This document shows positions 24,989 through 56,404 of a DNA stretch of 64,000 nt, piece by piece. This DNA comes from an uncultured delta proteobacterium (lineage in GTDB: Bacteria; Desulfobacterota; Desulfomonilia; Desulfomonilales; Desulfomonilaceae). The stretch lies in NCBI GenBank assembly GCA_963789265.1, contig CAWBKB010000006.1, positions 1 through 64,000 of the forward strand. Reading direction: 5' to 3'. How positions within the stretch are numbered: position 1 is the stretch's first letter; each line of letters opens with the position of its first letter. A program made the translations under genes and the position numbers. Under the pieces are notes generated by a model. The model saw only the letters and a list, made by a program, of their open reading frames with translations, ran no database searches and was not told where the DNA came from.

Positions 24989-25322
24989 GGCACCTGTGCC
25001 GTAGGCGTTAACTTAAAGGGGCGTTCCGGCCCGAAAAAAACCATTCTATCCCCAGGTGCGATACAGAAGGGTCGGGGCGGGTTTCAAACCCGCCGCTACG
25101 GGTCCGCGCTCTTGACGGGAAGGGGGAGGGTGATAGCGTATTGAAATTATCAGGCACCGCCACAACAAGTTAGCGGCTGTGTTCCACAGTCCGGTACATC
25201 CTTGAGGCTGTCCGTAATCAATTTATAAGTCTATAATGAATTGTGAGCGAGGGCGTCCTATTGCGAAGCCTTCAGAGATACTTGCATTGCTTGGCTGTCG
25301 ATTCTCTTCTAGGGGCTCATCC

Positions 25323-26663
25323 ATGAAATTCGTAATTATCGGTGGGGACGCGGCGGGTATGAGCGCTGCATCGAAGGCAAAACGCAACGATCCCTCCATA
25401 GGTGTAGTGGTCCTGGAGCAGACTACCGATGTATCTTATTCGGCTTGCGGACTGCCGTACAACATAGCGGAGCCGGAACGTGACATGAACGATCTCGTTG
25501 TTCGGCCGGCCCATGTCTTCAGAGATAAGCAAGGAATAGACTTAAAATTGGGGCACAGAGCGGAACGGATCGATCGGGACCGTAGGACCGTGTCCGGCCG
25601 AACCGCGGACGGGGATCCGTTTGAGGTGTATTACGACAAACTTCTAATTGCGACCGGTGCTCGACCACGGATGCTCAAAATCCCCGGTGAGAATTTGCCC
25701 AGTGTCAAGGTGCTCAGATCCTTGGAAGACGGGCGCATTATCAAGCAGTACATGGCGGTAAACCCTGTTAAAAGGGCTCTGATTGTTGGCGCCGGATACA
25801 TCGGCCTGGAGATGGCTGAGGCTTTTCACGAGCGCGGAGTCCAAGTTGAGATATCCGACATTTTGCCAGAATTGCTCCCCTGGCTGCCGAGTGAGATGAG
25901 CGGGATAATCAGGAAAGAACTCGAAGACAAAGGAGCGAGGCTACATCTGGGGACGGGAATATCCAAAATCGAAGAATCCGGCGGTCGGTTACGGGTGACT
26001 CTGGACGACACAATGCTGGAAGTGGATCTTGCGCTCATTGGAGTAGGAGTGGTTCCGAATTCCGAGATAGCCTCCGAAGCCGGGCTTGCCGTGGGGCCTC
26101 AGAATTCCATTGCGGTGGACAAGACCTTTCGCACGTCGGACCCGGAGATCTTTTCCGCGGGAGATTGCGCAGACGCCTTTCACGTAGTGACGGGGCAGCG
26201 AGTCTGGATACCACTTGCGCTCAGGGCTAATCGCGGCGGTTGGGCTGTGGCGGACAATGTTACGGGCCGCCAGGTCGAACTGCCCGGCATTGTGGGAAGT
26301 GCAGTCTTCAAAGTCCTGGACATGGAGGTAGCTCACACCGGTTTGAGTTCGAGCGAAGCCAACCGCGCCGGGTTCGATGTGGTCGAGGATGTGATCAAAA
26401 GCCGTTCCAGGGCCCACGCACATCCGGGAAATCAGGACATTTACGTACATCTGACCGCGGATAGAAAAAACGGGCGGTTGCTTGGAGGTGACTTGGTTGG
26501 AAAAGAGGGTGCGGCTCACCGAGTCGACGCTTTGGCAGTGGCGCTGCACGCGGGAATGAGAGTCGAGGAATTCTCTCAGTGTGACTTGGCCTATGCTCCG
26601 CCCTTTTCACCGGTATGGGACCCGCTACTTACTGCGGCTAATCAGTTGTTGAAGAAGATGTGA
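25323..26663 (+). CDS. CoA-disulfide reductase / NADH oxidase family flavoprotein
   Basis: IGGDAAGMSAA, SYSACGLP redox Cys, GAGYIGLE and DLAYAPPFS motifs. Confidence 0.9.
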   Translation: MKFVIIGGDAAGMSAASKAKRNDPSIGVVVLEQTTDVSYSACGLPYNIAEPERDMNDLVVRPAHVFRDKQGIDLKLGHRAERIDRDRRTVSGRTADGDPFEVYYDKLLIATGARPRMLKIPGENLPSVKVLRSLEDGRIIKQYMAVNPVKRALIVGAGYIGLEMAEAFHERGVQVEISDILPELLPWLPSEMSGIIRKELEDKGARLHLGTGISKIEESGGRLRVTLDDTMLEVDLALIGVGVVPNSEIASEAGLAVGPQNSIAVDKTFRTSDPEIFSAGDCADAFHVVTGQRVWIPLALRANRGGWAVADNVTGRQVELPGIVGSAVFKVLDMEVAHTGLSSSEANRAGFDVVEDVIKSRSRAHAHPGNQDIYVHLTADRKNGRLLGGDLVGKEGAAHRVDALAVALHAGMRVEEFSQCDLAYAPPFSPVWDPLLTAANQLLKKM

Positions 26664-26698: not shown

Positions 26699-26887
26699 CA
26701 ATCACTTATGCGAGGGATCTTCTGCATCTTGTCATTGCGAGGAGTGCATGGTGGGACAGGCTTCCAGCCTGTCTATTAGGGATGACGGGCAAGATGCCCG
26801 TCCCACCGGCAATCTAAGCGGCGTTTAAAGGAAAAGATTGCTTCGCTTCGCTCGCAATGACAATCTCGTCCCACGCGTAAGTAAATG
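26699..26887. mobile_element. MITE-like family 2 (ends ~CATTCACTTA / TAAGTGAATG) carrying a GTCATTGCGAG...CTCGCAATGAC REP, here with a nested family-B REP
   Basis: Related copies at 41355-41659 and 56268-56404; partial copies near 29264-29380 and 51244-51502. Confidence 0.7.
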
Positions 26888-28493: not shown

Positions 28494-28804
28494 GATGTTC
28501 CTCCTTTGTTCCTAAGTCGGGAATAGATTATTTGCCGGGTATTCCCGGATCGAAAGCATCATTCGCGTTTGTTCGCAAGGTCGATCTCGGCACCCGGCGT
28601 CATCGCGGCTCTGGGAACCTTCCAAAATTCTCCTGTAAACACAGGGGCTCCCCCGCGGGCCTGACTAAATCACACGAATGTTAGCATCATGATAAGCGCA
28701 AGCTTTTTTTTTATTCGGGATACCGGACGATGTGCTCGACGGTTGGTTTGGTAGAGGTCACGCCTTATGGTATAATACTTATCTAAATATATAGGGGGTG
28801 AATT

Positions 28805-29227
28805 ATGACTTCTTCGACTATCGATGATAGTACTTTGAAACAATTGCTAACAGATTCTCATACGGTTGCAGTCGTGGGCCTTTCCACGAATCCACAAAAA
28901 GACAGCCACATGGTTGCCGGTTATTTGAAGAGACACGGTTACCGAGTAATTCCGGTGAACCCCGCGGCAGGTGAAATCCTGGGTGAAAAGAGCTACTCGG
29001 ATCTAAGGTCTATACCTGAATCCGTAGACATAGTGGACGTGTTCCGTCGCTCGGAATTTCTGCCTGAAATAGCGAAGCAGGCTGTGGAAATCCACGCCAA
29101 GGCGCTCTGGATGCAGATGGGAACAAGGAACGAAGAGGCTGTGAATATAGCCCGCCGAGCCGGCATAACAGTGATAGAAGATCGCTGACTGATGCAGGAG
29201 CACGCCCGGCTGGTAGCCGGAAAGTAA
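28805..29227 (+). CDS. CoA-binding protein (YccU-like), candidate selenoprotein with TGA at 29186-29188 read as Sec
   Basis: AVVGLS, GYRVIPVNP, VDIVDVFR, ALWMQ.G motifs. Read-through gives DR-U-LMQEHARLVAGK*, matching the family's DRC...EH.RL end. Hairpin CCGGCT-GGT-AGCCGG follows. Confidence 0.85.
29206..29220 (+). promoter_or_regulatory. Putative bacterial SECIS hairpin
   Basis: 6-bp stem CCGGCT/AGCCGG with a G-initiated loop starting 24 nt after the in-frame TGA. Confidence 0.65.
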
Positions 29228-29449
29228 AATCAAGTGAGCGCTTAATGACGTGGGGATCTAGATTGTCATTGCGAGCGGAGCGAAGCAATCTTTCTGTTGC
29301 AGCGGCAAAGCTCAGATTGCTTCGTCGATTCTCTCCTCGCAATGACAAAAGACGCGATTCACTGGATAAGTAAGTGATTACAAAATCAATCGAAATTGAC
29401 CTGACAGCACCTTGACCATTATTGGCAATGATGAAAGGAGTTGCTGCCG

Positions 29450-30157
29450 ATGGCTGTTGATTCGGAGTTTAGAGGTTTCCCCAAGGAATCCGTCAGCTTT
29501 TACGTTGACCTTGCGCAAAACAACAGTAAGGCTTGGTTTGACTCGCATAAAAATGTTTTCGAGACTTACGTCATGTTGCCCGCGCGCGAATTCGTATCTG
29601 AAATGGGGAACCTTCTTTCGCATCTATCTCCGCGAATCCACGCGGATCCTCGTGTAAACAGATCGATTTTTCGTCCCTACCGCGACACCCGCTTTAGCAA
29701 AGACAAAACTCCATACAAGACTCATTTTGGGATCTTCTTTTGGGAGGGCTCCCGCGCGAAGATGGAATGTTCCGGATACTACTTTCATCTTGAACCTCCA
29801 ACACTGTTCCTCGCGGCGGGTATACATTGCTTTTCGCCGTTGCTTCTTGGGACTTATCGCGATTCGGTTGTAGACCCTAAACACGGACCGGCGCTCGTGA
29901 AGGCGATAAAGCAAATCTCCAAGGCCGGGTCTTATTCTTTCGGAGGCAAGCACTACAAGAAGACACCCCGAGGTTATGACTCGAATCACGAAAACGCGGC
30001 CCTGCTTCTGCACAACGGCCTCTATGTGTGGACCGAAGATGAGATTCCGCCCGAGTTTTATTCGTCAAAAATACTGGACTATTGTTTCGAAAGGTTTAAG
30101 AAGATGTCCCCTTTGCACAAATGGCTGGTAGGAATGACAGAGCGGGCCGGCACGTAA
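29450..30157 (+). CDS. DUF2461 (TIGR02453) family protein
   Basis: L..NNSKAWF, IFRPYRDTRFSKDKTPYK, GYYFHL and PRGY motifs. Confidence 0.9.
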   Translation: MAVDSEFRGFPKESVSFYVDLAQNNSKAWFDSHKNVFETYVMLPAREFVSEMGNLLSHLSPRIHADPRVNRSIFRPYRDTRFSKDKTPYKTHFGIFFWEGSRAKMECSGYYFHLEPPTLFLAAGIHCFSPLLLGTYRDSVVDPKHGPALVKAIKQISKAGSYSFGGKHYKKTPRGYDSNHENAALLLHNGLYVWTEDEIPPEFYSSKILDYCFERFKKMSPLHKWLVGMTERAGT

Positions 30158-42583: not shown

Positions 42584-43089
42584 GTAACCATTCAGTCTTA
42601 TGGGGCAGGCTTTCCGAAAGTGTCTCAAAACTATTTTGATGTCAAGAATCGTGGCACGATGTCAGCCCAGCACTAAAGTACCGGTCTACTCTCGATCGCC
42701 CCGATGGGGCTCAAATGCTGGCGTCCCGTAGGGACAGAGGACAGTAGCCCGGTAATTCATTGCCGGGAAAAGGGGCATCGTGCTACGGATTTCGTACGCG
42801 CCTCGATTTTGAGACACTTTCTTCCAGCCTGCCGAGGAAACCCCGTTCAATGGCGGCCTATAAAGCCGACCCCACGAAGCTACAGGCAAATTCCGGCTGT
42901 AACTGAATGCTGACACGAGGGAGTAAGCATTCAGTTCCGGAGGGAGAATTCTGTTAACGGTGTCATTGCGAAGAGTGAAACGACGAAGCAATCTCCTCTT
43001 GGACAGGCTGGGAGATTGCTTCGCTGCGCTCGCGATGACATGGCCGGATGGAGCATCCGCCGCATATAACTGAATGCTGACACGAGGGA
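42584..43089. mobile_element. Tandem and nested MITE array
   Basis: Element 42923-43081: TIRs GTAAGCATTCAGTT/AACTGAATGCTGAC, 8-bp TSD ACGAGGGA. The adjacent related element 42584-42914 contains a 206-bp element (42616-42821) with TIR GAAAGTGTCTCAAAA and TSD TTCC. Confidence 0.85.
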
Positions 43090-56267: not shown

Positions 56268-56404
56268 CATTCACTTACGAGCGGTAAAGGACTGTCATTG
56301 CGAGCAAAGCGAAGCAATATCTTCCTTTAAACCCCACTTAGATTGCTTCGTCGTTTCACTCCTCGCAATGACAAGTTGCAGAAAATCCCCCGCATAAGTG
56401 AATG
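56268..56404. mobile_element. MITE-like family 2 copy with REP cargo
   Basis: CATTCACTTACG ... CATAAGTGAATG ends around GTCATTGCGAGC...CTCGCAATGAC. Confidence 0.7.

Follow-up and report, generated by a model that had tools for sequence, protein, structure and literature searches.

The window analysed here is the whole 64,000-nucleotide stretch of contig CAWBKB010000006.1, and the gene of interest lies at 28805-29227 on its forward strand. The open reading frame begins with an ATG at 28805 and, read conventionally, runs for 127 amino acids to a TGA at 29186-29188, following ...VIEDR. Past the TGA the same frame reads LMQEHARLVAGK, a further 12 codons (29189-29224), and ends at a TAA (29225-29227). 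If the TGA is decoded as selenocysteine (Sec), the product would be a CoA_binding_2 (YccU-like) protein of 140 residues, the 128th being Sec, and the 12 downstream codons would make up its C-terminal helix. A Shine-Dalgarno-like AGGGGG is found at 28793-28798 (+), with the ATG 6 nt further on. A promoter-like site, TTGGTA-17-TATAAT with a TG ahead of the -10 hexamer, is present at 28748-28776 (+), 29 nt before the start codon; it is a match to the consensus and no more, at 10 of 12 positions, and shuffled sequence yields 0.8 sites of such quality in the same region. Within the last seven codons of the coding sequence is a hairpin (29206-29220, +) with a perfect 6-bp stem, formed by the arms CCGGCT (29206-29211) and AGCCGG (29215-29220), and the loop GGT (29212-29214). 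If the U of the UGA is numbered 1, the loop occupies nt 27-29. A preliminary description of this DNA had reported the stop after VIEDR, the frame open to the TAA, the perfect hairpin and a G-initiated loop 24 nt past the TGA, and translation and reading of the sequence bear it out: the first G of the loop is the 24th base after the A of the TGA, with 23 nt between.

Several other features surround the gene. At 25236-26663 (+), 2.1 kb upstream, is a gene for a pyridine-nucleotide disulfide oxidoreductase that has no TGA. It is the genome's best match to TIGR03385, the model for CoA-disulfide reductase (CoADR), but at 397.3 bits it stays under the 578.8-bit cut-off, and its product is a related pyridine-nucleotide disulfide oxidoreductase. 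Directly downstream, at 29441-30157 (+), is a DUF2461 gene; the two genes stay paired at 5 of the 14 loci from relatives, and two genera whose homologues have Cys at the position of the TGA are among these. The intergenic DNA carries a palindromic repeat, with arms TTGTCATTGCGAGCGGAG and CTCTCCTCGCAATGACAA and an inner 11-bp palindrome, at 29263-29348, and further copies lie at 26836-26861, 43014-43039 and 56294-56319, making four in the window where 0 are expected. Metagenome contigs stack on this repeat to summed depths of 114-477, so the repeat must be common to many organisms or be present in many copies. Finally, some genes are in pieces in the assemblies of relatives, namely DUF2461 and IorA at locus L144 and selA in genomes G002 and G004, which suggests that those assemblies contain frameshift errors.

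To what family does the protein belong? The read-through protein matches the Pfam profile PF13380 (CoA_binding_2) with an E-value of 1.2e-43 and a score of 148.7 bits, the gathering cut-off being 22.8. Residues 20-133 align with positions 2-115 of the 116-position profile, so that the match crosses the TGA. The NCBIfam search of the read-through protein returned no selenoprotein model, and gave weak acyl-CoA ligase matches far under their cut-offs. Three homologues in the PDB, 2DUW from Klebsiella, 2D59 (PH1109, also 2D5A) and 1IUK (TT1466), are matched with E-values of 4.6e-31 to 1.6e-26 in alignments that run to residues 136-139. These single-domain PF13380 proteins share the family, the fold and the length of the window protein. 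They also share its C-terminal motif, D-R-C-x-M-x-E-H-x-R-L, save for the Cys: the three have DRC where the window gene has DR-TGA followed by a SECIS-type hairpin. The earlier claim that the TGA sits exactly on the conserved Cys thus holds. Membership in PF13380 suggests that the 140-residue protein binds CoA. Escherichia coli YccU presumably belongs here as well, and we place it by its name; we know of no function for the single-domain CoA-binding proteins of this family.

An AlphaFold model made with 28 sequences (pLDDT 95.6) has the Rossmann-like fold of the solved PF13380 members. It superimposes on 2D59 with Z 25.7 and an rmsd of 1.1 over 138 aligned residues, and on 1IUK with Z 23.4. 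In the predicted model a strand at 122-124, the last of the CoA-binding sheet, precedes residue 128, and residue 128 stands directly before a helix at 129-136.

The preliminary description proposed looking among homologues for alternation between TGA and Cys, and such alternation is found, at a single column. A match to the protein is present in 28 of 61 related genomes. In the window's own genus all 7 genomes have one TGA at the same place, a frame open to 140-141 codons, and the hairpin. The 16 orthologues read from other genera have Cys at the column, and the nearest genus carries Cys forms that are 61-67% identical. For the whole order, a match occurs in 33 of 70 genomes and TGA is confined to the window's genus. 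The best 120 database homologues of the window protein divide into 80 with Cys and 40 that end just before the column; the 40 are 72-100% identical to the window protein. Among the loci that were fetched, Cys is found in 79 of 80 from metagenomes and in 78 of 80 from species genomes, and TGA in one (L042) and two (L158 and L183), respectively. An even sample of 401 Desulfobacterota genomes contains 206 with a match, and among the 150 matches listed the Sec form occurs once. Besides the window genome's own, three of the listed matches have a TGA inside, and these were rejected, as in each the TGA is an ordinary stop about 10 codons after the Cys. In short, an in-frame UGA in one genus aligns with a Cys in its homologues.

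Cys is not universal at the column, because a paralogue (L041, at G020:C32; 39% identical) has Ala there, as read by eye, and a database protein of the Dehalococcoidia clade (P0231) has Leu.

One of the TGA forms from species genomes, L183, comes from a quite different source, a metagenome-assembled genome (G480) titled Dehalococcoidia bacterium. Its gene reads ...VIMNN-TGA-TMREHRRRFGG..., and its hairpin, GCCGCCG-GUU-CGGCGGC, is of another sequence than the window's, with the loop again at nt 27-29. The G480 genome has selA, selB and a tRNA-Sec (70.8 bits). When 151 genomes of the same order were sampled, 66 had a match; 32 of these were read, and the column holds TGA in 26 and Cys in the remaining 6, so that at least 26 of the 151 carry the TGA, a count that leaves aside the other 34 matches and a partial match in G534. 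The best 120 database matches of the Dehalococcoidia form comprise 35 that end just before the column, 84 with Cys and one with Leu. In an even sample of 401 Chloroflexota genomes a match is present in 115 and the Sec form is found once, in G480, the tally including one genome flagged as unpublished (G668) with no stop inside its match. Seven further Chloroflexota matches with a TGA inside were examined and set aside: all have Cys, and then an ordinary stop.

How many times has the Sec form arisen? We made a quick maximum-likelihood tree of 83 rows, with the Cys/Sec column masked by X and the tails trimmed to 12 residues, leaving out the paralogue L041, 15 of the Dehalococcoidia TGA forms and unselected database proteins. 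The 8 TGA forms of the Desulfomonilaceae make one clade (support 99) placed among the Cys forms of their own family, and the Dehalococcoidia forms make a separate clade (support 99) in which Sec and Cys forms are mixed. At least two changes of label are forced by well-supported branches, and six occur on the tree as drawn, which is a quick one. On this tree, the second TGA lineage, in the Dehalococcoidia, is independent of the Desulfomonilaceae genus. The distribution of the Sec form is phylogenetically narrow, comprising the window's genus and one Dehalococcoidia order.

The hairpin raises the question of whether it is suited to act as a bacterial SECIS element. The published bSECIS model describes a stem of 4-16 bp and a loop of 3-9 nt with G in its first two positions, 16-37 nt from the UGA, with a minimum free energy at or below -7.5 kcal/mol (PMC13188914). 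The window hairpin fits on each count: its stem has 6 bp, its loop, GGU, has 3 nt and lies 23 nt past the UGA, and its folding energy is -10.1 kcal/mol. It is also conserved in relatives, so that the SECIS-like hairpin of the preliminary description has stood up well. Folded in isolation, the hairpin has a z-score of -2.58, and 5 of 200 shuffles are as stable; in wider contexts the folding energy is unremarkable (z -1.01, -0.64 and -1.40). The Rfam search of 28700-29400 detected no SECIS family, giving three chance-level matches only. As a measure of background, the genome has 2478 long frames ended by TGA, and only 2 of them are followed by a perfect stem of at least 6 bp with a GGN triloop starting at nt 22-32. 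Those two frames, on the forward strand near C1 2421883 and C7 342353, may be further selenoprotein candidates or may be due to chance.

Hairpins of like build follow the UGA of other selenoprotein genes in the same genome: the loop is GGG at nt 27-29 in fdhA, GGA at nt 27-29 in flpD and GGA at nt 24-26 in selD, and a second fdhA has a hairpin with the loop GGUCU at nt 22-26. Like the window gene, fdhA, selD and FlpD/MvhD of this genome have an in-frame UGA at a Cys position and a G-initiated triloop 21-24 nt past the UGA, and they need the same machinery. The window gene differs from them in that its SECIS would lie in the last seven codons and its Sec would be the only Cys-type residue. A known element for comparison is the SECIS of E. 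coli fdhF, which has a SelB-binding GU loop. The window hairpin is like that element in having a short apical loop that starts with G-G/U at a fixed distance from the UGA, and differs from it in sequence, stem length and spacing; here recruitment of SelB is a prediction.

Is the stem preserved as a structure? All 8 sequences of the window's clade retain the five core pairs. L042 shows a compensatory C-G to U-A change and an extra pair, and L018 has gained a C-G pair. Within this clade alone, the covariation comes from a single compensatory pair, in L042, and its score is reached by 61 of 500 shuffles. The signal is stronger when the 34 TGA forms (29 distinct) of both lineages are taken together. 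An 8-pair helix is then paired in 86.2% of cells as against 75.1% when shuffled (0/500), and the covariation score of 0.274, compared with 0.108 in shuffles, is likewise reached by none of the 500. Changes on both sides are seen in 4 of the 8 pairs, and controls in which the helix was slid along the alignment are at most 60% paired. One pair, 21-35, is CG in 22 sequences, UA in 6 and UG in 1, the UA being found in both lineages. Thus the stem covaries over the two lineages and does so weakly in the window's clade alone; because the signal is largely between two clades, it represents few events, and conserved amino acids also hold several bases of the stem constant.

The placement of the hairpin separates the two kinds of gene cleanly. 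We scanned for perfect stems, 5 bp or longer, that close a loop of 3-5 nt with G in its first two positions, among forms recovered by a motif search that missed L042, L070, L075 and L112. All 33 TGA forms are followed by such a hairpin whose loop starts at nt 26-28, and none of the 93 Cys forms is; 7 of the latter have some hairpin at another position. A small second stem, UGC-NNNN-GCA, is predicted just past the UGA in both Sec lineages (29193-29202; alignment columns 8-10 with 15-17). It overlaps the conserved M-x-E-H codons, and the protein sequence alone may account for it.

The preliminary description suggested looking elsewhere in the genome for the genes of Sec synthesis and insertion, and selA (507 bits), selB (386 bits, with a cut-off of 242), selD (360 bits) and a tRNA-Sec with anticodon tca are all there. 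The selD gene itself has a TGA. Of 6 congeners, all 6 have SelA; the gene is split in two in G002 and G004, and part of it is found in G005. Among 55 genomes tested in the Dehalococcoidia order, SelA is present in 26 of 26 with TGA forms and 24 of 29 with Cys forms. The stops of 4736 long frames in the window's genome are TGA in 2478, TAA in 1143 and TAG in 1115; TGA is the commonest stop, and therefore the code is standard and not reassigned. Selenoprotein genes are plentiful in this genome: selD, two of the fdhA type and three of the FlpD/MvhD type, each with one in-frame TGA and then a hairpin (C7:193442-194362, C4:138837-141863, C1:2104183-2104902, C3:727630-727998, C3:722868-723236 and C3:1001699-1002070).

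These comparisons establish, at the level of sequence, that the UGA stands in a setting for recoding, that this setting is conserved and that the genome has the machinery. From them we think it very probable that 28805-29227 is a PF13380 selenoprotein gene, in which the UGA is read as Sec by means of the hairpin; the lone Sec would probably act on an external thiol. The insertion of Sec proposed in the preliminary description thus finds support in the TGA/Cys alternation, the conserved hairpin and the Sec machinery; the incorporation of selenium itself, and the redox or catalytic role that the same description gave the residue, we infer. On this proposal, a ribosome arriving at the UGA (29186-29188) would meet the hairpin at 29206-29220, whose GGU triloop, 23 nt past the UGA, would recruit SelB with Sec-tRNA(Sec). 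Sec would be inserted, and the 12 further codons would be translated to the TAA. The Sec would take the place of the conserved Cys, at the N-terminal end of the C-terminal helix and after the last strand of the Rossmann-like sheet.

Might the UGA be read through with some other amino acid, by near-cognate decoding as Trp or Cys, or by Cys carried on tRNA-Sec? The comparative data speak to translation past the UGA rather than to the identity of the inserted residue, and in that respect they suit such decoding as well. Against it, SelA is present in every genome with a TGA form that was tested (the window's own, 6 of 6 congeners and 26 of 26 in the Dehalococcoidia order), and Cys codons stand at the column in each of the 5 genomes where the search detected no SelA. 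The hairpin, moreover, fits a SelB-type model and resembles the hairpins of known selenoprotein genes of the genome. We consider insertion of a residue other than Sec to be very improbable.

If instead the TGA were a true stop, the product would be a 127-residue protein lacking the C-terminal helix, and the conserved stretch beyond it would have to be a regulatory or terminator hairpin. Every public gene call does end at the TGA, including those of the short database matches of both lineages counted above, and TGA is the commonest stop of the genome. The codons past the TGA tell against termination. Among the 8 TGA-form genes of the window's clade, codons 1, 3, 4, 5, 6, 9 and 11 of the 12 vary synonymously. 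Most of the variation is at third positions; the non-synonymous variants number four, and three of these fall within the final two codons. The TAA is at the identical position in 8 of 8, and the sequences diverge immediately beyond it. The 12 codons keep the family motif L/M-M-x-E-H-x-R-L, and the tail is also kept in the 26 Dehalococcoidia genes. Together with the Pfam match that spans the TGA, these observations indicate that the frame beyond the UGA is under protein-level constraint. The C-terminal helix is needed by the Pfam profile and by the solved structures alike. The stem has no T-run on its 3' side, and an intrinsic terminator is thereby excluded. The hairpins of the two lineages differ in sequence and keep the same distance between loop and TGA. 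Termination at the TGA is, in our judgement, very improbable.

The TGA is also present in a separate metagenome contig, possibly from the source sample, that covers 28881-29214 with 0 differences. That the TGA is an error of sequencing or assembly, or that the gene is a decaying pseudogene, is scarcely credible: the preliminary description did mention other errors in the window, and genes are fragmented in some relatives' assemblies (DUF2461 and IorA in L144; selA in G002 and G004), but the TGA is shared by 7 congeneric genomes, the metagenome locus L042 and 26 Dehalococcoidia genomes, and the remainder of the gene is intact, with a ribosome-binding site.

Returning to Sec as the residue inserted, what might it do at this position? 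Neither the window protein nor the Dehalococcoidia form has any Cys besides the Sec, which leaves both without a resolving Cys and without a UxxC or CxxU motif. A parallel is the alpha subunit of succinyl-CoA synthetase (SCS), in which, in E. coli, a conserved Cys123 follows the equivalent strand and is near the CoA thiol. The N-terminal CoA-binding domain of SCS alpha shares the fold of the window protein, and the model matches E. coli SCS alpha with Z 13-13.9 and an rmsd of about 2.5 over 124-125 residues, residues 12-140 corresponding to 1-142 of the chain; the entries matched include some titled C123a mutants. We take it that in both proteins the domain's last strand precedes the Cys-type residue. 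The window protein consists of the CoA-binding domain alone; SCS is a ligase of several domains.

We considered whether U128 is the counterpart of Cys123 residue for residue, and did not retain that equivalence. The fold search relates the two by ranges and not residue by residue; hhalign of the family alignment against the genome's own SucD gives a probability of 0.45%; and in an hmmsearch with the family profile the ACD-like proteins align only as far as about profile position 104. The genome's SucD (L273, C1:309316-310173) has GPNTPG, with a Thr that presumably occupies the place of E. coli Cys123.

A precedent for selenium in CoA-thiol redox chemistry is provided by the Sec-containing CoA-disulfide reductase-like flavoproteins, although their fold is unrelated to that of the window protein. 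The table of a 2026 review has a row for TIGR03385, Sec-containing, with the motif UGxP (PMC13188914).

Do the neighbouring genes point to a partner? A functional link to the CoADR-like gene upstream was rejected, as the order PyrRedox-ATE-CoA-binding is found in only 1 of 14 relatives' loci (L144), and among those 14 loci no conserved redox partner adjoins the gene. The neighbours of two Dehalococcoidia copies are unrelated, MFS and NHL genes in one and radical SAM and cupin genes in the other. Since neighbour orders are poorly kept and the Dehalococcoidia neighbours are unrelated, gene context identifies no functional partner.

From the lone Cys-type residue at the start of a helix and from the SCS parallel, with gene context uninformative, we propose with moderate confidence that the Sec is a single centre, redox or nucleophilic, whose target is an external thiol. 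The Sec would form a selenosulfide with that thiol, the likeliest being the thiol of bound CoA, as in CoA disulfide exchange or the removal of CoA from CoAlated proteins. Alternatively, an acyl-selenoester intermediate might be formed. A bolder proposal is that this is an uncatalogued family in which Cys has been replaced by Sec at least twice, that the Sec forms a selenosulfide with CoA, and that the YccU/PH1109 family as a whole consists of CoA-dependent thiol-redox proteins and not passive binders. We regard this larger proposal as tentative, and on balance doubtful.

The literature has little to say on either the selenoprotein or the family. PF13380, YccU and the CoA-binding family are absent from both the text and the 119-family Table 1 of the 2026 review (PMC13188914). 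Two 2026 selenoprotein catalogues, the review's own of 119 families and another of 111, do not list the PF13380 family; it is not mentioned in the accessible parts of the deep-Sep text and its 4 supplementary files, or in those of the BSepDB text and supplement. The GOS, Olavius and ISME J 2016 papers are silent on it in their main texts. A full-text literature search combining selenoprotein and CoA-binding gave nothing relevant, and a search for the function of PH1109, TT1466, YccU or YneT turned up nothing usable. We read the Sec form of PF13380 as a probable uncatalogued selenoprotein family that would use the ordinary bacterial recoding mechanism. The protein has neither a thioredoxin fold nor a UxxC or CxxU motif.

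Some practical consequences follow for annotation. Public gene calls truncate the Sec-form genes at the TGA, as seen in 40 of the best 120 matches of the window protein and 35 of the best 120 of the Dehalococcoidia form. Where the truncated genes are named, they are called only 'CoA-binding protein', and annotation pipelines could be corrected. If the reading is true, the selenoprotein catalogues gain a family without the thioredoxin fold or the UxxC/CxxU motif.

The natural replacement of Cys by Sec is one of the few signs, recognizable from sequence only, of a chemically active cysteine. A Sec at the conserved Cys of PF13380 would therefore point to chemical activity of the residue throughout a widespread family, which is found in bacteria and archaea, includes E. 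coli YccU, and has solved structures but no function that we know of. It raises the hypothesis that residue 128 is a nucleophile or a redox centre beside the thiol of CoA.
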